Assembly: GCA_026393975.1 (NCBI GenBank)
Contig: JAPKZD010000003.1
Coordinates: 161,814 to 225,813 of the forward strand
DNA from: Candidatus Aminicenantes bacterium
GTDB taxonomy: Bacteria > Acidobacteriota > Aminicenantia > Aminicenantales > Saccharicenantaceae
Direction: 5' to 3'
DNA length: 64,000 nucleotides
The notes under the pieces: model-generated
Seen by the model: only the letters and a program-made list of their open reading frames with translations
What the model was told of the DNA's origin: nothing
Databases searched by the model: none
Translations under genes and position numbers: made by a program
Shown here: one piece after another, positions 20,655 to 45,606 of the stretch
Layout of the letters: the number at the start of each line of letters is the position of its first letter
Numbering within the stretch: the first letter of the stretch is position 1

Positions 20655-20766
20655 CATTCCCCGCCCATGAAGAACGGGGATACGGACAGGAGGTCTCTGT
20701 CCCTCCAATGGCCAGAGCCGAAGTGTCGAGCGAGCTCAAGGGCGAACGAGACAACCGCTGAACCCG

Positions 20767-20903
20767 GAGCCGAGGGGTGTCGCCGGAGGGAGCATAAAGC
20801 GGTGATTTAGACTTCCTGCGCCGGATACGCGGACTCCTCCCATCGGATCCGGCGCGGGAAGGCGTTAAAAATCAGCGCAGCGAACGAAGACGACCCCCGA
20901 GGC
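20767..20903 (+). repeat. Structured intergenic repeat, copy A (plus orientation)
   Basis: gAGCCGAGGGGTGTCGCCGGAGGGAGCATAAAGCGGTGATTTAG...GCGCCGGAT[ACGCGGACTCCTCCCATCGG]ATCCGGCGC...GTTAAAAATCAGCGCAGCGAACGAAGACGACCCCCGAGGC. Shares about 85% identity with copies C and D. It is immediately followed by TTGAAA-17-TATTCT. Confidence 0.8.
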
Positions 20904-35123: not shown

Positions 35124-35147
35124 TCCGAGTTTTTTTCTTCCTATTTG

Positions 35148-35262
35148 GGCCGAGGGGCATCGTTGACGGTAGCATAAAGCGGGGATTTAGCCGTCATGGG
35201 ATGGGGCAGGCCCATGACGACGTTAAAAATCCACGCGCGGACGGAGACGATACCCTGAGGCC
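35148..35262 (+). repeat. Structured intergenic repeat, copy B (plus orientation; variant central hairpin)
   Basis: GGCCGAGGGGCATCGTTGACGGTAGCATAAAGCGGGGATTTAGCC-[GTCATGGGatggggcaggCCCATGAC]-GACGTTAAAAATCCACGCGCGGACGGAGACGATACCCTGAGGCC. The ends are conserved with A, C and D; the middle is replaced by a different perfect 8-bp hairpin. Confidence 0.7.
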
Positions 35263-36995: not shown

Positions 36996-39926
36996 ATGCC
37001 CCGGTCCCCCAAGCTCGAAGGGCCCTCGGAGGAGGTGGCCCTCGTCGAGAACCTCAACCCGGCGCAGCGCCGGGCGGTCCTCCATGGCGGCGGGCCGCTC
37101 CTCATCATCGCCGGCGCGGGGACGGGGAAGACCAAGGTCATCACCCATCGGATCGCCCGGCTGATCGCCTCGAAGGCGGCCCGGCCGGACGAGATCCTGG
37201 CCGTGACCTTCACTGAAAAGGCGGCCAACGAGATGGAGGCTCGGGTCGACGTCCTCGTCCCCTACACGTCGTCTTTCGCCGAGATCAGCACGTTCAATTC
37301 CTTCGGCGAAAGGGTCCTGCGCGACTACGCCCTCGACGTCGGCTATCCGCCGGACTTTCGCCTGCTCGACGACGTCGAGCAGGCCATCTTCTTCCGCGAA
37401 CACCTCTTCCGCCTGCCGCTCGATTATTACCGGCCGCTCGGCCAGCCGACGCGCCACATCCAGGAGCTCCTTGGGGCCATCCGCAGGCTGAAACAGGAGG
37501 ACGTCCGCCCCGAAGACTACGCCCGCTACGCGGAAGGGCTCGGGGAACGGGTGTCGAACGAGAGCGAGAAGGAGACGGCCCGGAAGCACCTCGAGATCGC
37601 CCGGGTCTTCGCGGAATACCAGACTCTCCTCCGGACGCAGGGCCTGATCGACTTCGAGGACCAGGTGACCCTCGTCGTCGACCTCTTCCGGCGGCGGCCC
37701 TCCGTCCTCGAGGAATTCCGGCGGCGATACCGGTACATCCTCGTCGACGAGTTCCAGGACACGAACTACATCCAGTTCGAGCTCCTCAAGATGCTCGCCG
37801 CCGGGCACAGGAACCTGACCGTGGTCGGGGATGACGACCAGAGCATCTTCCGCTTCCGAGGCGCCTCGCTCAGCAACATCCTCGGCTTCGAGGAGGTCTA
37901 CCCCGAGGCCAAAAGGATCGTCCTGACGCGGAACTACCGGTCGACCCAGCCCATCCTCGACGCTTCCTATCGGCTCATCCAGCACAACAACCCGAACCGG
38001 CTCGAGTTCAAGTACCGGGTCGACAAGCGCCTGAAGGCGGACGTCCGCGGCTCCGGGAAGAGCATCCACATGCTCCAGCTCGACACGCTCTTCCACGAGG
38101 CCGACGACGTGGCCGACCGTGTCCTCGACATCCACGGCCGCGGGGCGGCCTGGAAGGACATTGCCGTCCTCGTCCGCCGGAACGCCGACGCCGACCCCTA
38201 CCTGCGGTCCTTCAACGTGAAACAGATCCCCTTCCGGTTCTCGGGCAGCCGGGGGCTCTACCAGCAGGAGGAGGTCAAAGTCCTCGTCGCCTTCATCCGG
38301 ACCCTGACGGATTTCGACAACAGCCGCGATCTCTTCTACCTCGCCCTTTCGGACGTCTACAAGGCCAGCCCTTACGACATGACCCGGATCGCCGGGCACG
38401 CCGAGAAGAAGAACCTGTCCCTCCACAGCGTCTTCAAGACGATCGCCGAAGGCTCGAGCCCCGTGGAGATCGCCAAGGAGACGGAGGAGACGGTCAAGAG
38501 GATCTTCGCCGACATCCTCGCGTTCGTCGATCTCGCCGGGGCGAAGAATGTCGGGGCGGTCGTCTACGCCTTCCTCGAAAAAAGCGGCTACCTCAAGTCC
38601 CTGATCAGCCCGATGAACCTCGAGTCGGAGGTCCGGATCAAGAACATCCGCCTCTTTTTCGACAAGATCAAAGGGTTCTCCGATCTCGTCGACAACGACT
38701 CCATCCGCTCCTTCGCCCGTTACCTCGACCTGCTCCGCGAGGTCGGCGACAACCCGGCCACCTCGGAGGCGGAACTCGACGAGGACGCCGTCAATGTTCT
38801 AACGGTTCACAAGGCCAAGGGGCTCGAGTTCGGGACGGTCTTTCTCGTCGGCCTCATCGAGGACCGCTTTCCCGGCCGGGAGCGGCGGGAGAAGATCCCG
38901 GTCCCGGACGGGATCCTCAAGGAGCGCCTGCCGGGGCGGGAGAACTATCTCCAGGAGGAGAGGCGGCTCTTCTACGTGGCCATGACCCGCGCCCGCCGGG
39001 CCCTCTATCTGACCTGGGCCAGGGACTACGGACTCAAGCGCCTGAAGAAGGTCAGCCCCTTCGTCCTCGAGGCCCTGGACATCCCCAAGATGCCGGAAGA
39101 AGTCCTGCGGGCCTCCGTCCTCGAGGAGATCCGGCGCTACGCCCTGTCCGACAGCCGGCCGAAGGCCCCGGCCGTGGCCCGGCCGACGGGGACGCTGCGG
39201 CTGAGCCACGTCCAGGTCGAGGACTACCTCATCTGCCCGCTCAAGTACAGGTTCCGCCACGTCATGCGCGTGCCCGTCCTGCCCCACCACTCGCTCGTCT
39301 TCGGCCGCGTCCTTCACGCCGCGATCCACGCCTTTCTCAAGCAGAGGATGAAGGGCAAGCGCCCTGCCGAACAGGACGTCATCGATGAATACGGTAAGAA
39401 TTGGGTCAACGAAGGCTTCCTCAGCCGGGAGCACGAAGAGTTGCGCAAAGCGGCGGGCGAGCAGGCCCTTCGCCTCTTTTACCGGCGGGAGGAGGAGTCG
39501 GGGCGCCTGCCGGCTTTCCTCGAAAAGCCTTTCCGCTGGCAGGAGGGCGGCGTCCGCTTTTCGGGACGCTATGACCGCGTCGATTTCGAGGCGGACGGCC
39601 CGGTTATCATCGATTTCAAGACGACCGAGGCGTCCTCCCAGAAGGAAGCCGACCGCCGGACGGCCGACAGCCTGCAGATGGACGTCTACGCCCTATCCTT
39701 TTTAAAGACGGAGGGGATGCTTCCGGTCGAGACGCGCCTCCATTTCCTGGAGTCCGACATCGTTGGACATGCCACGAAGGGGGAGAAAGAGTTGCGCCGG
39801 GCGGCGGAGAAGATCCGTCAAGCAGCAGAAGGCGTCCGCGGCGGGGATTTCACGGCCCGGCCGGACTGGCATAACTGTTCGATCTGCGAATTCAAGACGA
39901 TCTGCCCCTCATCGTTTGCTTATTGA
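36996..39926 (+). CDS. UvrD/PcrA-family SF1 helicase fused to a C-terminal PD-(D/E)XK Cas4/AddB-like Fe-S nuclease domain
   Basis: 976 aa. LNPAQRRAV, GAGTGKTKVITHRIA, VDEFQDTN helicase motifs. C-terminal ~230 aa with Cys..(D)..IIDFKT..(Q..DVY)..C-x2-C-x5-C (LICPL ... CSICEFKTICP). ATG directly after the ftsB TAA. Confidence 0.8.
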   Translation: MPRSPKLEGPSEEVALVENLNPAQRRAVLHGGGPLLIIAGAGTGKTKVITHRIARLIASKAARPDEILAVTFTEKAANEMEARVDVLVPYTSSFAEISTFNSFGERVLRDYALDVGYPPDFRLLDDVEQAIFFREHLFRLPLDYYRPLGQPTRHIQELLGAIRRLKQEDVRPEDYARYAEGLGERVSNESEKETARKHLEIARVFAEYQTLLRTQGLIDFEDQVTLVVDLFRRRPSVLEEFRRRYRYILVDEFQDTNYIQFELLKMLAAGHRNLTVVGDDDQSIFRFRGASLSNILGFEEVYPEAKRIVLTRNYRSTQPILDASYRLIQHNNPNRLEFKYRVDKRLKADVRGSGKSIHMLQLDTLFHEADDVADRVLDIHGRGAAWKDIAVLVRRNADADPYLRSFNVKQIPFRFSGSRGLYQQEEVKVLVAFIRTLTDFDNSRDLFYLALSDVYKASPYDMTRIAGHAEKKNLSLHSVFKTIAEGSSPVEIAKETEETVKRIFADILAFVDLAGAKNVGAVVYAFLEKSGYLKSLISPMNLESEVRIKNIRLFFDKIKGFSDLVDNDSIRSFARYLDLLREVGDNPATSEAELDEDAVNVLTVHKAKGLEFGTVFLVGLIEDRFPGRERREKIPVPDGILKERLPGRENYLQEERRLFYVAMTRARRALYLTWARDYGLKRLKKVSPFVLEALDIPKMPEEVLRASVLEEIRRYALSDSRPKAPAVARPTGTLRLSHVQVEDYLICPLKYRFRHVMRVPVLPHHSLVFGRVLHAAIHAFLKQRMKGKRPAEQDVIDEYGKNWVNEGFLSREHEELRKAAGEQALRLFYRREEESGRLPAFLEKPFRWQEGGVRFSGRYDRVDFEADGPVIIDFKTTEASSQKEADRRTADSLQMDVYALSFLKTEGMLPVETRLHFLESDIVGHATKGEKELRRAAEKIRQAAEGVRGGDFTARPDWHNCSICEFKTICPSSFAY

Positions 39927-39944: not shown

Positions 39945-41660
39945 CTATTGCGGCTTGACCCAGAAGGGCATGACCGCCCAGATCTTCGTCCGGTTCATCA
40001 TGCGGACCGTGTCCAGGATCTTTTCCCGGCCGGCCGCGCTCTTGATATCGAGCCCGATCCCGGAACGGCTGAAAACGGCCTGCCAGAACGAGCGCTTTTT
40101 GGGCCAGACGTCGAAACGGACTTCCTCGTCGGCGTCGATTCCGGCCTCCTTTTTAGCCAGGCCGACGGCCATGGTCAGGCCGCCGAGCTCGTCCACGAGC
40201 TTGCGGTCCTTGGCCTGGCGTCCCGTCCAAATGCGGCCCTTGCCGACGGCGTCGACCTCATCCCGGGTGAGGCCCCGCCCCTCCGCGGCCTTGGACAGGA
40301 ACTGCTCGTAGGTCCACAGGATCTCTTCCTTGAGGACTTTCCGCTCGTCGGGAGTGAACGGCCGGAAGGGCGAGAAGATGTCGGCCTTTTCGCCGAAGGC
40401 GAGCTTCTCCGAGGTAATGCCCAGTTTCCCGAGAAGGCCGTCGATGCTGAACTTTCCGGCCAGGACGCCGATTGACCCGGTCAGGGTCTGCGGCTGGGCG
40501 ACGATCTTCGTCGCGGCCATGGCGATCCAGTACCCGCCCGAGCCGGCCACGTCCGACATGGACACGACGACGGGCTTCACCTTTTTGGCCAAGGCGACCT
40601 CGCGCCAGATGACGTCTGACCCGACCGACGACCCTCCCGGGCTGTCGATGCGGAGGACGATAGCTTTGACCGATCCATCGTTGCGGGCGGTCCGTATCCA
40701 CCGGGCCACGGTCGACCCGCCCATGACCTGGGGCAGGCTTTCGCCGGTCATGATCGTCCCAACGGCGTAGAGGAGGGCGACCGTGCGGCCCGTTTCGAGG
40801 CCGACCGAGGACGGCTTGACCTTCGTGTAGTCGTCGAACCTGACTTGGGCCGGCGCCCGGCCGTCCTGCCGCAGGAGCGCCTGGATCTCGTCCTCGTAGA
40901 GGCAGTCGTCGACGAGCCCCGCCGCCTTGGCCCGCTCGCCCTGGAAGAAGCTGCGGTCGACGAGGGCCCGGAATTCGGCTTCGGTCTTACCGCGGGCCTT
41001 GGCCGCCGTAGCCACGTACTGGGCGAAGAGGTCGGAATAAAGGGATTCCATCTCTTCCCGGTGGGCCGGTGTGAAGCCCTTTTCCGTGAACATGTTAGCC
41101 GCGGTCTTGTATTCCTCGACGTGTTCGAACTCGGCCCGGACGCCGAGCTTGTCGAGCGCGCCCTTCAAGAACGGAACATAGCCGCCGATGCCGTTGATGC
41201 CCAGCCAGCCCAGGGGGTGGAGGATGATCCGGTCGCAGGCCGTGGCCACGAAATATTCCATGTCGAAATCAGGGGCCTCCTCGATCACGGCGTAGACCTT
41301 CTTGCCCGAGCGGCGGAAATCGAGGATGGCCTCGCGCATCTCGTTGGCCTTGGCCCAGTCGCACTGGAGGAGGCCGAGCCGCAGGAGGACGGCCTGGATG
41401 CGGCCGTCGACCTTGGCCTTGCGCAGGTTCATCCAGAAATCGTACATGGCCAGCGGCTTCGCCCCGAGGAGGAGCGAGCTGAGGGAGTCCGGCGCGGCGA
41501 CCTCGGAAACGGTGCCCGAGAGCGGGACCTCGAGATAGCCGCGGGCGGGCATGTCCACGGCCGTCCCGCCGATGTCCATGACGACCAGGAAGAACGTGCC
41601 GGCGGCGGCCAGCAGGAAAAAGAACAGGAAGATCATCCCGACATAGGCGGATTTTCTCAT
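39945..41660 (-). CDS. sppA: Signal peptide peptidase SppA (67K type)
   Basis: Two tandem ClpP/crotonase-like S49 domains (IVLRIDSPGGS...). N-terminal TM. Internal ATG at 41660 with GAGGAG RBS chosen. Confidence 0.85.
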   Translation of the reverse strand: MRKSAYVGMIFLFFFLLAAAGTFFLVVMDIGGTAVDMPARGYLEVPLSGTVSEVAAPDSLSSLLLGAKPLAMYDFWMNLRKAKVDGRIQAVLLRLGLLQCDWAKANEMREAILDFRRSGKKVYAVIEEAPDFDMEYFVATACDRIILHPLGWLGINGIGGYVPFLKGALDKLGVRAEFEHVEEYKTAANMFTEKGFTPAHREEMESLYSDLFAQYVATAAKARGKTEAEFRALVDRSFFQGERAKAAGLVDDCLYEDEIQALLRQDGRAPAQVRFDDYTKVKPSSVGLETGRTVALLYAVGTIMTGESLPQVMGGSTVARWIRTARNDGSVKAIVLRIDSPGGSSVGSDVIWREVALAKKVKPVVVSMSDVAGSGGYWIAMAATKIVAQPQTLTGSIGVLAGKFSIDGLLGKLGITSEKLAFGEKADIFSPFRPFTPDERKVLKEEILWTYEQFLSKAAEGRGLTRDEVDAVGKGRIWTGRQAKDRKLVDELGGLTMAVGLAKKEAGIDADEEVRFDVWPKKRSFWQAVFSRSGIGLDIKSAAGREKILDTVRMMNRTKIWAVMPFWVKPQ

Positions 41661-41827
41661 GGCGGCTCCTCGTTTTTGCCCGGTCACGCGGCCCGTGTCC
41701 GGGCCACCCAACTATAGCAGAAATGAGCTTGATTTCAATCTTCGAAATATGGACAATAAATCCTCATCCCGCCGCGTCCTTCCCGCAGCGGGGCCGGCGA
41801 TGGCGGGAGAGACAGGAGGTATTCTGA

Positions 41828-42136
41828 ATGTCTTTTCAAAAGCTTTATGTCGGTAACCTCAATTACAAGACCACGGAAGAGACGCTGAAGGAGCTGTTCG
41901 CGCAGTTCGGCGAGGTTACCTCGGTCAACATCCTGCAGGGCCGCGGCTTCGGCTTCGTCGAGATGGCCACGCCGGAAGCGGCGCAGGATGCCAAGGGCAA
42001 GCTGAACAGTACCGAGTTCGACGGCCGCAAGCTCATCGTCAACGATGCCCGCCCGCAGGCCGAAAGACCCCGGACCGATCGCGATCGGCGCCCGGGCGGA
42101 CCCGAGGGCGATAGACGAGGATTCTCCAAGTTCTGA
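41828..42136 (+). CDS. RRM-type RNA-binding protein (RNP-1/RNP-2) with Arg/Gly/Asp-rich tail
   Basis: KLYVGNLNY (RNP-2) and RGFGFVEM (RNP-1). 102 aa. Confidence 0.85.
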   Translation: MSFQKLYVGNLNYKTTEETLKELFAQFGEVTSVNILQGRGFGFVEMATPEAAQDAKGKLNSTEFDGRKLIVNDARPQAERPRTDRDRRPGGPEGDRRGFSKF

Positions 42137-42162: not shown

Positions 42163-42299
42163 GGCCTCGGGGATCGTCTCCGTCCGCTGCGGTGATTCTT
42201 AACGCTATCCCGGGCCGGATTCGATGGGGGGAGTCCGCGTATCCGGCCCGAGCTAGCTAAATCACCGCTTTATGCTCCCTCCGACGATTCCCCTCGGCC
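42163..42299 (-). repeat. Structured intergenic repeat, copy C (minus orientation), in the 3' region of the RRM-protein gene
   Basis: The reverse complement aligns with copies A and D: GGCCGAGGGGAATCGTCGGAGGGAGCATAAAGCGGTGATTTAGC..GGGCCGGAT[ACGCGGACTCCCCCATCGA]ATCCGGCCC..GCGTTAAGAATCACCGCAGCGGACGGAGACGATCCCCGAGGCC. Confidence 0.8.
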
Positions 42300-42327
42300 C
42301 CGATTTCTGCGGTGTCGGGCTATTAGA

Positions 42328-42362: not shown

Positions 42363-42681
42363 CATCTCCCCTCTGCGTCAAAAGGCACTCCATTCCATTG
42401 GCTGCAATGCTTTCTGTGTCGCAAGACGCCACCCGGGCTGAGACAGGGACCGTCCAGAGCCCCCGTAGCGGAGGGGGACCCATCGGCTTGCCGATGGGGG
42501 AACCGCCGGGACTGGTTCCCAGGGGGGCCGGGGGATATGGATGGTCCCTGTTTCAGCCTAAAAGGGTGGCGCCAGCGATTCTTGCCTGTTCCTGGGGTGA
42601 ACCTTTGGTCATCTCGCTTCGTTGTACCCAGTGAAGTCCCAGGAGAGGAGTTTAGAAGTGTCGGACCGGCTGAGTGTTCCC

Positions 42682-42710
42682 TTGACCGCCGGATGGCAAC
42701 GTCATACAGT
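42682..42710 (+). promoter_or_regulatory. Putative promoter of the ECF sigma gene (TTGACC-17-TACAGT)
   Basis: Hexamers spaced 17 nt apart, ~78 nt upstream of ATG 42788. The sequence contains GGCAAC/GTC elements but no clear ECF-type consensus. Confidence 0.35.
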
Positions 42711-42787: not shown

Positions 42788-43354
42788 ATGGCCGAGCCGA
42801 CCGAGATCGCCTCTCTCTTGGAGCGGATCCAGGACGGAGACCGGGAAGCTTTCATGACGATCATCCGGCTCTACCAGCAGAAAGTGTTCGTTATGGCCTA
42901 CTCCATTCTCCGCAACCGCGAAGACGCGCTCGACGCCGTCCAGGAAACGTTCCTCAGGCTCTATCAGAAGGCCGGCCTCTACAAGCCCGGCAATTCGTTC
43001 CAAGGCTGGCTCCTCCAGATGGCCAAGAACATCAGCATCGACAGCTACCGGAAACACCAACGGAAGCGGCGGGAATGGGAGACTTCGAAGCCGCTCGAGG
43101 AAATCCCCATCGCGGTCGAGGACAGGGCCTCGGACTCGGCCGCGTCGGACCTTCGGAGCACTTTTGCGCGGTCCGTCGACAAGCTGGCCAAGAGGCAGAA
43201 GATGGTCTTCGTCATGAGGCACTACAACGAGCTTCAATTCAACGAGATCTCCGAAGCCATGCGGATCTCGGTCGGGACGGCCAAGTCGCTCCATTTCAAG
43301 GCCGTCCAGAATCTCAGGAAGTGGCTGACACCGGATTTGGGGATGCAACGATGA
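42788..43354 (+). CDS. ECF-subfamily RNA polymerase sigma factor
   Basis: sigma70 region 2 (..RLYQQKVFVMAYSILRNREDALDAVQETFLRLY..) and region 4 (..LQFNEISEAMRISVGTAKS..). Confidence 0.85.
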   Translation: MAEPTEIASLLERIQDGDREAFMTIIRLYQQKVFVMAYSILRNREDALDAVQETFLRLYQKAGLYKPGNSFQGWLLQMAKNISIDSYRKHQRKRREWETSKPLEEIPIAVEDRASDSAASDLRSTFARSVDKLAKRQKMVFVMRHYNELQFNEISEAMRISVGTAKSLHFKAVQNLRKWLTPDLGMQR

Positions 43355-44148
43355 ACAAATGCGCGCTGAACAGGGACGATTGGGCGGCCTTCCTCTCGGG
43401 CGACCTGGAGGAAGGAAGGAGAACGACGATGGCCGAACATTTCGAAAAGTGCCCGAAATGCCGGGCCGAGGCCGATGAGATGCGAAGGGTCCTGGCGAAG
43501 ACCGACGCCGTCAAGGCCGAGATCCGCGAGGCGGTCGCGTCTGTCGACTGGGAGAAGTTTCCCGCCGTGATCGCCGACCGCGCCGTCGCCGCGTCCCGAA
43601 AGCCCGAGGGCGTTTTGCCGGCCGCGCGGCCGTGGGTCTGGCTATTCCCCCTCCGGATGAAACCGGCCCTGGCCGGGCTCGCCGCCGGCCTCGTCGTCGG
43701 CGCGGTGGCCATGTACTTCGCCCTGAAGGCCCCCGGGCCCCGTCCCGGGCTGGGCACGGGATATTATGCCTCCGGCGAGTTCCTAGACCGGGCCGAACTC
43801 GCCATGGCCCGCCGGAACACACTGGACTACCTCGAAAAGAGCCAGTACGTCCTCCTCGACGTCTTCGAATCGGCCGGGGAAGGGGCCGGGGTGCCGGCTG
43901 CATTCAGCTCGGAACAAGCTCGGGACCTCCTCTCGAAGAAAAAGTACCTCAACGCCCAGCTCGAGAAGTTCCAGATGGCCAAGGCCAAGGCCATCTGCGA
44001 CCAGATCGAGATGCTCTTCCTCGAGCTCGCCCAAATCAGCGACAAGCTGCCCGCTGCCGAGCTCGGCAGGATCCGGGGCTTCGTCGAGGAGCGCCAGCTC
44101 CTCCTGAAGATCAACCTGGTCAAAAAAGAACTGCAAAGTGAGATCTGA
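43351..44148 (+). CDS. Zinc-finger (zf-HC2) transmembrane anti-sigma factor
   Basis: ATGA overlap with the sigma gene. HFEKCPKCRAEADE (H-x3-C-x2-C). A single TM helix (ALAGLAAGLVVGAVAMYFAL). Periplasmic coiled-coil C-terminus. Confidence 0.75.
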   Translation: MNKCALNRDDWAAFLSGDLEEGRRTTMAEHFEKCPKCRAEADEMRRVLAKTDAVKAEIREAVASVDWEKFPAVIADRAVAASRKPEGVLPAARPWVWLFPLRMKPALAGLAAGLVVGAVAMYFALKAPGPRPGLGTGYYASGEFLDRAELAMARRNTLDYLEKSQYVLLDVFESAGEGAGVPAAFSSEQARDLLSKKKYLNAQLEKFQMAKAKAICDQIEMLFLELAQISDKLPAAELGRIRGFVEERQLLLKINLVKKELQSEI

Positions 44149-44149
44149 C

Positions 44150-44998
44150 ATGAAAAAATTCACCGCCATCGTCGGCCTGTTTTTCGTCCTTTTGGCTGGG
44201 CCGGGTCTTTACGCCCAGACGACCCCGGACGAAACGCTCTTCAGGGAGGCCAAGCTCCTCGTCTTCGACAAGAGCTGGGAGGCCGCCTTGATCAAGCTCG
44301 ACGACCTCCGCGAGAAATTCCCCAACGGCCCCTATGCCGGCCAGGCCCTCTTTTATAAGGGAGAGTGCCTGAGCGGTCTCGACGGCCGGGAGAGGGACGC
44401 CCTGCGGGCCTACAAGGACTATATCCAGCTTGCCGACGCCAAGCCCAGCCTCGTCGAGGAATCCGAAGGCTCGATCATCGATCTGGCTTTCGCGCTCTAT
44501 GAAAAGGGCGACGCGTCCGCGCTCCGGGACATCGAAGGCCGGCTCGAACACGGCAACAAGGTCGTCCGCTACTACGCGGCCTACAAGCTGAGTCTTGTCC
44601 AGGATAAGAAGTTGGCCGCCAAGGCCGCGCCCGTCCTCATGAAGATCGTCGAGTCCGAGAAGGACCCGGAGCTCCTCGACCGGGCCCGGATCGCCCTCCT
44701 CCGCGTTTCTCCCGAGAGCCTGAAATCCGTCGAGGACAGGAAGCCCGCGTCCAACTCCCCCCGGATGCTCAAGATCCGGATCTGGAATAAAGGCCAAAAA
44801 GAACCCGCATTCTCGCTCAACATCCCCTGGGCCCTGGCCGACCTGGCCCTGGGCGCCATGGACGAGGAAGACAAGGCGGCCATCCGGAAGAAAGGTTACG
44901 ACCTGACCAAGATCGTGAACGAGTTGGCTAAGTCCAAGGAGAGCATCCTCCGGATCGTGGGCGACGACGGCTCGGTCATCGAGATCTGGATCGAATGA
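44150..44998 (+). CDS. Secreted protein with TPR/HEAT-like N-region and a conserved C-terminal domain ending DDGSVIEIWIE
   Basis: Starts 1 nt after the anti-sigma TGA. Signal peptide (FFVLLAGPGLYAQ). HEAT-like VVRYYAAYKL...LLDRARIAL. The C-terminal ~80 aa are paralogous to the next gene. Confidence 0.6.
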   Translation: MKKFTAIVGLFFVLLAGPGLYAQTTPDETLFREAKLLVFDKSWEAALIKLDDLREKFPNGPYAGQALFYKGECLSGLDGRERDALRAYKDYIQLADAKPSLVEESEGSIIDLAFALYEKGDASALRDIEGRLEHGNKVVRYYAAYKLSLVQDKKLAAKAAPVLMKIVESEKDPELLDRARIALLRVSPESLKSVEDRKPASNSPRMLKIRIWNKGQKEPAFSLNIPWALADLALGAMDEEDKAAIRKKGYDLTKIVNELAKSKESILRIVGDDGSVIEIWIE

Positions 44999-45020
44999 TA
45001 AAGGAAAGAGGAGAAGAGAC

Positions 45021-45404
45021 ATGAAAAAAATAGCGCTCGTCATCTTAGGTGTCTTCTGTCTGGGAATTCTTGCCGCCCCGGCCGCCGCGGCCAACCACAA
45101 CGACTTCAAGGTCATTCAAAAAGCCGTCAAGCAGAACCCGGCCTACGAGGAGGGCAAGGAAGTCAAGTGGTTCAAGGTCCTCATCACGGACGGCAAGACG
45201 AATGACGCCAAGGTCAAGGTGACCCTGCCCATCGCGCTCGTGGAGGTCCTCATCAACTGCACCGACAGCCGGCACTTCAAAATCGACGACGGGGACTGCG
45301 ACATCGACCTCAAGGCCGTCTGGGCCGCGCTGAAGCAGGCCGGTCCCATGGCCCTCATCGAAATCCGCGACGACGGCGCCCTCATCAAGGTCTGGCTGGA
45401 ATAA
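45021..45404 (+). CDS. Small secreted protein; paralog of the C-terminal domain of the preceding gene (ends DDGALIKVWLE)
   Basis: 127 aa. Signal peptide (LGILAAPAAA). Shares ..K(I/V)-I..G...(I/L)P-AL..L....D(L/I).K(I/A)V..L...L..I.DDG..I..W.E with 44150..44998. GAGGAG RBS. Confidence 0.6.
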   Translation: MKKIALVILGVFCLGILAAPAAAANHNDFKVIQKAVKQNPAYEEGKEVKWFKVLITDGKTNDAKVKVTLPIALVEVLINCTDSRHFKIDDGDCDIDLKAVWAALKQAGPMALIEIRDDGALIKVWLE

Positions 45405-45436
45405 GAGAGAAAAACTCTTCTTTCCACTAATTATAG

Positions 45437-45574
45437 GGCCGAGGGGTGTCGTCGGCGGAAGCATAAAGCGGTGATTTAGCCTGCCCGGGACGGAGACGCG
45501 GACTCCTCCCATCGACTTCGGACCGGGAAGGCGTTAAGAATCACCGCAGCGGACGGGGACGATATCCCGAGGCC
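45437..45574 (+). repeat. Structured intergenic repeat, copy D (plus orientation), abutting the leuC promoter
   Basis: GGCCGAGGGGTGTCGTCGGCGGAAGCATAAAGCGGTGATTTAGCCTGCCCGGGACGGAGACGCGGACTCCTCCCATCGACTTCGGACCGGGAAGGCGTTAAGAATCACCGCAGCGGACGGGGACGATATCCCGAGGCC. Confidence 0.8.
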
Positions 45575-45577
45575 ACG

Positions 45578-45606
45578 TTGACAAGGCCTCCGGGCCCCCA
45601 TAAAAT
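45578..45606 (+). promoter_or_regulatory. Putative sigma70 promoter of leuCDB (TTGACA-17-TAAAAT)
   Basis: Consensus -35 at 45578-45583, a 17-nt spacer (aggcctccgggccccca, self-complementary), -10 at 45601-45606. AGGAGG RBS, then TTG start at 45627. Confidence 0.5.

Follow-up and report, generated by a model that had tools for sequence, protein, structure and literature searches.

A 64,000-nucleotide (nt) stretch of contig JAPKZD010000003.1, from a Candidatus Aminicenantes bacterium (hereafter, the window), was found to carry four consecutive genes for a sigma factor of the extracytoplasmic function (ECF) type, a zinc-motif anti-sigma factor and two secreted proteins, P3 and P4, which share a C-terminal domain. 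Judging from its conservation across related genomes, this module is a genuine and strongly conserved functional unit, ancient within Aminicenantes, and its four genes are predicted to be co-transcribed from an operon-wide, autoregulatory ECF promoter. ECF operons with accessory envelope proteins are of a well-known general kind, and the family formed by the shared domain is unannotated. A literature search retrieved no paper joining Aminicenantes with an ECF sigma factor and its anti-sigma factor, and nothing on the shared domain.

Organisation and conservation of the module

The four genes are co-directional, as read both from the sequence and from the table of open reading frames (ORFs), with the following coordinates in the window:

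42788–43354, + strand: ECF sigma gene, 188 amino acids (aa), from the ORF list and direct sequence reading
43351–44148, + strand: anti-sigma gene, 265 aa, from the ORF list and direct sequence reading
44150–44998, + strand: P3 gene, 282 aa, predicted to be secreted
45021–45404, + strand: P4 gene, 127 aa, predicted to be secreted

The TGA of the sigma gene and the ATG of the anti-sigma gene at 43351 share an ATGA overlap, and the description of this pair in the initial annotation, as an ECF sigma gene overlapping in this way that of a single-pass, zf-HC2-type anti-sigma factor, was borne out by the sequence, by Pfam and NCBIfam scans and by ortholog matches. The start codon of P3 lies one base past the anti-sigma stop. 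The product had been described as a secreted TPR/HEAT-like protein of 283 aa starting at that point, which holds except for the length, as the protein has 282 aa and the former figure counts the stop codon. From the P3 stop to P4 there is a gap of 22 nt, with a purine-rich stretch ahead of P4.

A scan with one genome per species recovered 58 loci (named L plus a number, as are the further loci below), in 50 of which the four genes could be delimited. The lineage-named records among the 58 belonged to Aminicenantes, Saccharicenans or Acidobacteriota, and several loci were deposited under generic or evidently wrong labels (uncultured Eubacteriales, Terriglobales). Gene order was invariant in all 50 species-level loci, with a spacing of -4 between sigma and anti-sigma genes in 46 of them, +1 between anti-sigma and P3 genes in 39, and mostly 15–29 nt between P3 and P4. 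The neighbourhood check proposed in the initial annotation had, therefore, a clear outcome, as orthologs of P3 and P4 stood beside sigma/anti-sigma pairs in essentially every locus examined. The flanking genes, encoding SppA, an RRM protein and LeuCD, were kept only in the nearer relatives, and the module itself persisted down to 36–50% identity. The same four-gene order was also present in two distant metagenome contigs, L071 (71% GC; 28–35% identity to the window proteins) and L072 (31–41% identity), whose anti-sigma factors showed the zinc motif and a homologous C-terminal domain. In addition, a reciprocal test that took the anti-sigma factor as its start led to 80 metagenome loci, of which 53 were long enough to judge; 52 of these were complete, none was without P3, and a single one (L145) was without P4.

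The regulators and their promoter

The 188-aa sigma factor showed Pfam matches to Sigma70_r2 (8.5e-16, residues 26–92), Sigma70_r4 (5e-11, residues 131–178) and Sigma70_ECF, with no match to regions r3 or r1, and scored 97.2 bits with the general ECF model TIGR02937 (cut-off 42.9). By these matches, it is an ECF (group 4) sigma-70 factor with only regions 2 and 4. Its best NCBIfam subfamily was SigW (105 bits, below the cut-off of 209), and sigma_PG0214 was among its top five matches (94 bits, below the cut-off of 130); being under both subfamily cut-offs, it was assigned to neither of these named subgroups (SigW/ECF30-like or PG0214 family).

The anti-sigma factor could be divided into three parts:

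residues 1–95: cytoplasmic HxxxCxxC domain, class I zinc-motif type
residues 103–128: transmembrane segment, the sole hydrophobic segment
residues 129–265: helical periplasmic domain, conserved, of no known family

Each position of the zinc motif (H30-x3-C34-x2-C37) was at least 90% conserved in 22 orthologs, 21 of which matched zf-HC2 (best 4.7e-11); the window protein itself was sub-threshold (17 bits, cut-off 22.2). Searched against PDB, the family profile recovered RslA, RsiW and ChrR through the N-terminal part only, and the periplasmic part had no match in Pfam or PDB. On this evidence, the protein is a class I (zinc-motif, zf-HC2), single-pass anti-sigma factor, for which zinc binding and sigma sequestration are predicted. 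One ortholog (L001:4318–5115, on the same contig as L013) has lost both cysteines of HxxxCxxC (YLKEHPEDRTE; KEHPEDR), with the remaining protein and the operon intact, so that zinc or redox sensing appears to be dispensable to the system in some lineages.

Mean pairwise identity among 48 species was 53.5% for the periplasmic domain of the anti-sigma factor and 36.5% for its sigma-binding domain, with 55.4% for the sigma factor, 56% for P3 and 55% for the P4 domain. Conserved helices of the periplasmic domain include LDYLEKSQY and MAKAKAICDQIE, and this degree of conservation would be more in keeping with a conserved partner protein than with a variable ligand.

The upstream 490 bp had been taken as non-coding in the initial annotation. 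The gap is in fact of 651 bp, with a hairpin repeat (42164–42313) and two putative promoters, which makes it a likely regulatory region. The predicted promoters around the module are the following:

42597–42623, + strand: ECF-type promoter, with -35 GTGAAC plus T-tract CTTT and -10 CGTT (GTGAACCTTT-N13-CGTT)
42682–42710, + strand: sigma-70-like promoter, TTGACC-17-TACAGT, from a consensus scan (9/12 positions)
45578–45606: sigma-70-like promoter ahead of the downstream leuC-like gene

The ECF-type promoter precedes the sigma ATG by 191 nt. A match to G?T[AG]AAC[CT]TT-N12-16-CGT[ACT] lies ahead of the operon, on the + strand, in all loci covering that region, twice in L024, and one stray minus-strand match was found inside the L030 sigma gene. 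Within the 64-kb window, 42597–42623 was its sole exact match, with 0.1 expected by chance; a one-mismatch match at 38785–38809 (- strand) was rejected, as it is antisense inside a 976-aa helicase ORF. Promoters of the sigW type in Bacillus subtilis read tGAAACnTTTt / CGTA (PMC5758882), and by its AAC, T-tract and CGT elements the window promoter is of the same class. The sigW-rsiW system resembles the module in this and in its zinc-motif (HxxxCxxC), single-pass anti-sigma factor, but its operon includes no accessory secreted proteins and the extracellular domain of RsiW is unrelated.

The TTGACC block of the sigma-70-like promoter at 42682–42710, together with CATACAGT, was conserved in the close relatives L002–L008 and L048, and this element is possibly a basal promoter. 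Downstream, the operon seems to be bounded by the sigma-70-like promoter that precedes the leuC-like gene. The 165-nt leader also holds a 23-codon ORF that runs from a GTG at 42658, behind the strong ribosome-binding site AGGAGAGGAG, to 42729.

Just upstream of the module lie a gene for an SppA-type signal peptide peptidase of family S49 (39945–41711, - strand) and another for a 102-aa RRM-type RNA-binding protein (41828–42136, + strand), both retained in the nearer relatives. In B. subtilis, sppA is a member of the sigW regulon; a motif scan of the 64-kb window found no ECF promoter motif ahead of the sppA gene encoded here.

A domain shared by P3, P4 and a third paralog

P3 and P4 each showed one N-terminal hydrophobic segment, signal-peptide-like and with no lipobox cysteine, followed by the regions listed here:

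P3, residues 1–22: signal peptide, ending ...GLYA/QTT, no lipobox cysteine
P3, residues 25–197 (44222–44740, + strand): TPR/HEAT-like helical solenoid
P3, residues 203–282 (44756–44995, + strand): shared C-terminal domain
P4, about residues 1–24: signal peptide
P4, residues 25–46: short helix
P4, residues 47–127 (45159–45401, + strand): shared domain

The kinship between both proteins was noticed in the initial annotation, which extended it over the whole mature P4; homology to the last ~80 aa of P3 stands, and it covers residues 47–127 of P4 only, that is, ~81 of ~103 mature residues. The common ending DDG(S/A)xIxxWxE before the stop was found as described (VGDDGSVIEIWIE in P3, IRDDGALIKVWLE in P4). 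Direct BLASTP of P3 against P4 gave E=0.005, with 22% identity over 79 residues, and the profiles of the two families were co-linear to the last residue (hhalign, E=2e-5). Moreover, distant homologs cross over between the families, with the L071 P3 homolog matching the window P4 at 1e-9 and the L072 P4 homolog matching the C-terminus of the window P3 at 7e-7. The topology predicted by AlphaFold was also alike in the P3 domain and P4 (beta-hairpin, helices, beta-hairpin), with a predicted local distance difference test (pLDDT) score of ~62 for the P3 C-terminal domain and 56 for P4 overall; P3 residues 30–170 scored >90. From these comparisons, the paralogy of the P3 C-terminal domain and P4 is real and better than chance.

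The search with P3 returned 976 homologs, and every source-named hit among the top 120 was from Aminicenantes or Acidobacteriota. P4 returned 210, all of ~127 aa and all lacking Pfam domains. Records of identical proteins (NT006_01585, NT006_01590) exist for a Candidatus Aminicenantes metagenome-assembled genome. Foldseek related the P3 solenoid best to BamD and other TPR proteins (E=3e-4 to 1e-3), and Pfam TPR_18, HEAT_2 and YfiO were all sub-threshold (YfiO E=0.02, 15 bits against 25). The solenoid fold is thus like that of BamD and YbgF (CpoB), with weak matches to TIGR03302, TIGR02795 and the PDB BamD chains. In contrast to BamD, P3 has no lipobox, carries an extra HEAT-like half and a C-terminal domain, and is encoded in a sigma operon; with only 23.4 bits for TIGR03302 (cut-off 81.4), its identity as BamD was ruled out, and the resemblance is of fold only.

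The initial annotation recognised no family for the shared domain, and this was confirmed. When P3, P4, 30 two-domain relatives, sequences of the domain alone and family consensus sequences were scanned with Pfam and NCBIfam, no family passed its threshold, and profiles of P4, P3, the shared domain and the two-domain proteins retrieved from PDB only TPR, BamD or spurious matches. No well-characterised family was therefore matched, and co-occurrence with sigma/anti-sigma pairs was found, the two points on which the annotation had been open to refutation. Against 1.84 billion cluster representatives (50% identity), the shared-domain profile recovered 692 proteins at E<=1e-3 and 133 at E<=1e-10, including P4-like and P3-like proteins and secreted proteins of ~185 aa with two tandem copies, the relatives of which were labelled Thermoanaerobaculia or Acidobacteriota. 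At three of the two-domain loci (L065:5001–6074, L066:5001–5984, L064:399–1231), the gene is followed by one for a small protein whose N-terminus bears a hydrophobic anchor. In L065 and L066 this anchored neighbour is full-length and distantly paralogous to the shared domain; in L064 it is truncated and only weakly resembles that of L065. These small genes were tried as anti-sigma relatives and rejected, as they are unrelated to the anti-sigma periplasmic domain and encode anchored shared-domain paralogs. The pairing of a secreted two-domain protein with a membrane-anchored paralog in other Acidobacteriota suggests that family members hetero-associate. Two of the two-domain loci have a PMT_2 glycosyltransferase gene nearby.

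A third paralog, P0, was found in a deep clade of Aminicenantes (L018, L024, L026, L028, L030, L032, L035, L038, L039, L041–L045 and L047), in which the ECF promoter lies ~520–590 nt upstream of the sigma gene and a P0 gene of ~140 codons fills the gap, resulting in a five-gene operon (e.g., L026:3290–3715). The P0 product shows a lipoprotein signal (...SGC or ...AGC) and the C-terminus ...SK(V/I)LIWL(D/E), and hhalign identified it as a homolog of the P4 family (probability 96%, E=4e-9). In addition, two Saccharicenans loci, L049 and L051, showed an apparent short remnant of the P0 3' end (...EEEKVLIWRK and stop) downstream of the promoter. From this distribution, the ancestral operon may have held three copies of the domain. 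The 23-codon leader ORF of the window starts exactly where P0 starts in the deep clade, ~60 nt past the promoter motif, and L004 keeps both its frame and the place of its stop. This ORF may be what is left of P0 or may encode a leader peptide; alternatively, its conservation could be due to the overlapping sigma-70-like promoter.

Several cysteines of the predicted extracytoplasmic parts are conserved: P3 C73 (KGEC) in all close homologs, P4 C93 and anti-sigma C216 (ICDQ) to at least 90%, and P4 C80 less strictly. The distant L071 and L072 do not show this pattern. These residues could take part in periplasmic disulfide or redox chemistry.

Possible roles of the secreted paralogs

RseB of Escherichia coli binds the anti-sigma factor at its periplasmic domain and gates proteolysis of that factor. 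The rpoE-rseA-rseB-rseC operon (PMC7826278) and algU-mucA-mucB of Pseudomonas share with the window module an ECF sigma factor, a single-pass anti-sigma factor and a periplasmic protein whose gene is tightly coupled, encoded together in a single autoregulated operon. However, RseA is not of the zinc-motif type, RseB belongs to the MucB_RseB family, and neither a TPR scaffold nor a paralog pair exists there. As the initial annotation held, P3 and P4 are unrelated to RseB in sequence (no MucB_RseB match at E<=1 in Pfam or NCBIfam), and their predicted folds, a TPR solenoid and a small domain of beta-hairpin, helices and beta-hairpin, are unlike the LolA-like fold of RseB/MucB. With these differences in mind, we infer that P3 and P4 may have an RseB-like partner role. 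In the mechanism we favour, which we regard as a serious possibility falling a little short of probable, the module would be an operon for envelope signalling, and the paralogs would form a periplasmic complex that acts on the outer domain of the anti-sigma factor and controls sigma release. P3 and P4 would associate through the shared domain, with the P3 solenoid as the scaffold, and the complex would sit on the anti-sigma factor, at its conserved helical periplasmic domain, controlling inactivation of that factor, and hence sigma release, either as co-sensor or as protector against proteolysis. The released sigma factor would then re-transcribe the whole operon from the GTGAACCTTT...CGTT promoter. 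Such a role would be functionally akin to that of RseB, CnrX or CseA, all of them unrelated in sequence.

The one-nucleotide anti-sigma/P3 junction, the absence of any locus without P3 and the conserved outer domain of the anti-sigma factor would favour this modulator role, for which the modelled TPR solenoid of P3, a typical protein-binding scaffold, was also counted, together with the clustering of paralogs in other Acidobacteriota, the fixed order and spacing of the genes and the single ECF-type promoter ahead of them. Several observations weigh on the other side. Four two-domain proteins encoded on long contigs of other Acidobacteriota, including those of L064, L065 and L066, have no sigma/anti-sigma neighbour, and the domain must therefore have a function of its own. 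Moreover, in L027:2445–5978, on a scaffold of 2.4 Mb, P4 is retained together with a P3 truncated at its 5' end by ~70 codons, with no sigma/anti-sigma genes upstream, and in L145:5600–5760 the leuC promoter region comes directly after P3, P4 being cleanly missing. A mirror-tree comparison of the anti-sigma periplasmic domain with P3 and P4, controlled for the sigma factor, gave partial r values of 0.08–0.24 for that domain with P3 or P4, within an overall range of 0.08–0.38, with no pair standing out, and no binding surface can be argued because the domain models are of low confidence (pLDDT 56–62). Finally, no other target promoter was visible in the 64-kb window, and P3 and P4, lying in an autoregulated operon, are outputs by definition.

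These points lead to the main competing explanation, possible although rather less than probable in our view, in which P3 and P4 (and P0) would be the regulated output, as envelope scaffold, chaperone or structural proteins with no feedback on the anti-sigma factor. This is the logic of mpt83-sigK-rskA (Mycobacterium, Yersinia), where the lipoprotein MPT83 and its secreted paralog MPT70 are encoded beside the sigma/anti-sigma pair and are its main targets (PMC7509140). The P3 and P4 genes are indeed under the ECF-type promoter, the only exact match in the window, and in the deep clade the first gene after this promoter is that of the lipoprotein P0 (promoter, P0, sigma, anti-sigma, P3, P4), the layout of the SigK site upstream of mpt83 (PMC7509140). 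The existence of the family apart from sigma/anti-sigma pairs, the retention of P4 without regulators in L027 and the lack of specific coupling to the anti-sigma factor in the mirror-tree comparison are also what plain outputs would show. However, MPT83 and MPT70 are outputs of a different protein family under a sigma factor of a different group, and a Pfam scan of P3 and P4 recovered neither that family nor a known family of any kind. In addition, the window paralogs lie downstream of the anti-sigma gene, to which they are predicted to be translationally coupled, and the +1 junction kept in 39 of 50 loci suggests a fixed stoichiometry with the regulator instead of a free-standing effector. 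P3 is never absent beside the anti-sigma gene where loci are long enough to judge, and the conserved periplasmic domain needs a conserved partner or ligand, with no other candidate encoded nearby. The modulator and output roles are compatible and both can be true.

A broader version of the modulator role, which we consider unlikely as a whole, would assign P3, P4 and P0 to a new family of periplasmic proteins that partner ECF anti-sigma factors in signalling, with a domain of beta-hairpin, helices and beta-hairpin ending ...DG..I.[IV]W[IL][ED]. A hetero-oligomer of P3 (TPR-borne), P4 (free) and P0 (lipid-anchored) would reach from the outer-membrane side to the anti-sigma periplasmic domain, its assembly state gating sigma release, and a remote link to DUF4252 would place the same architecture under the sigma/anti-sigma/DUF4252 operons of Bacteroidota, which are numerous and uncharacterised. 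Conversely, the module could be just a distant homolog of those operons and the shared domain a divergent DUF4252, a known though uncharacterised family, which we judge quite improbable. Three of the 30 two-domain relatives and their consensus matched PF14060 (E=0.003–0.03, 15–18 bits), always through the same part, with the last helix and hairpin aligned to profile positions 58–91, and the window sigma factor has sigma_PG0214 in its top five. In Porphyromonas gingivalis, PG0214–0216 and PG0985–0987 also consist of an ECF sigma gene, a hypothetical anti-sigma-like gene and genes for small secreted proteins, among them a DUF4252 protein, adjacent and co-induced (PMC10101095, PMC10434189). Nevertheless, all the similarity to these operons is sub-threshold: every PF14060 match falls under the gathering score of 23.9 bits and covers ~33 of the 125 profile positions, the sigma factor stays below the family cut-off, and the domain similarity appears only in the distant two-domain relatives, with no DUF4252 match at E<=1 for P3, P4, P0 or their consensus sequences. 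The DUF4252 link is thus a weak hint from sequence comparison, to be taken as a lead and not as a result.

The window also contains a dispersed intergenic hairpin repeat, two copies of which bracket the module:

20754–20903, + strand: hairpin repeat
35147–35204, + strand: hairpin repeat, partial
42164–42313, - strand: hairpin repeat
45436–45563, + strand: hairpin repeat

The repeat spans ~130–150 nt, its copies being 74–88% identical and each forming a long imperfect hairpin (-66.7 kcal/mol, z=-4.2), with no Rfam match at the gathering threshold, and looks like a repetitive extragenic palindromic (REP)- or miniature inverted-repeat transposable element (MITE)-like element or a structured RNA. 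The 128-nt inverted pair at 42173–42300 and 45436–45563, 88% complementary and with 3135 nt between its arms, could suggest that the four genes are a mobile or invertible cassette. This idea, which we hold to be extremely improbable, looks refuted: the same repeat occurs at two further unrelated sites of the window, every copy forms a long hairpin by itself, the repeat core was found in only 3 of 152 related loci, at varying positions, the module is syntenic class-wide without repeats, and genes for a transposase or recombinase are absent.

Bacteria have few signalling devices more abundant than ECF sigma/anti-sigma pairs, the input of which is unknown for most groups, notably in uncultured phyla (PMC7826278). 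If P3 and P4 were plain outputs, the module would be a well-documented, ordinary lineage-specific ECF operon. It offers a tightly conserved, class-wide example in which the operon itself encodes what are likely the input or output proteins, with a promoter motif sharp enough for regulon definition in any complete Aminicenantes genome, and with four genes and one promoter, small enough for reconstitution in E. coli. The shared domain, with ~690 cluster representatives at 50% identity, would merit its own Pfam entry and, if the DUF4252 link were true, would open a first way into the mechanism of the sigma/DUF4252 operons in gut and oral Bacteroidota.

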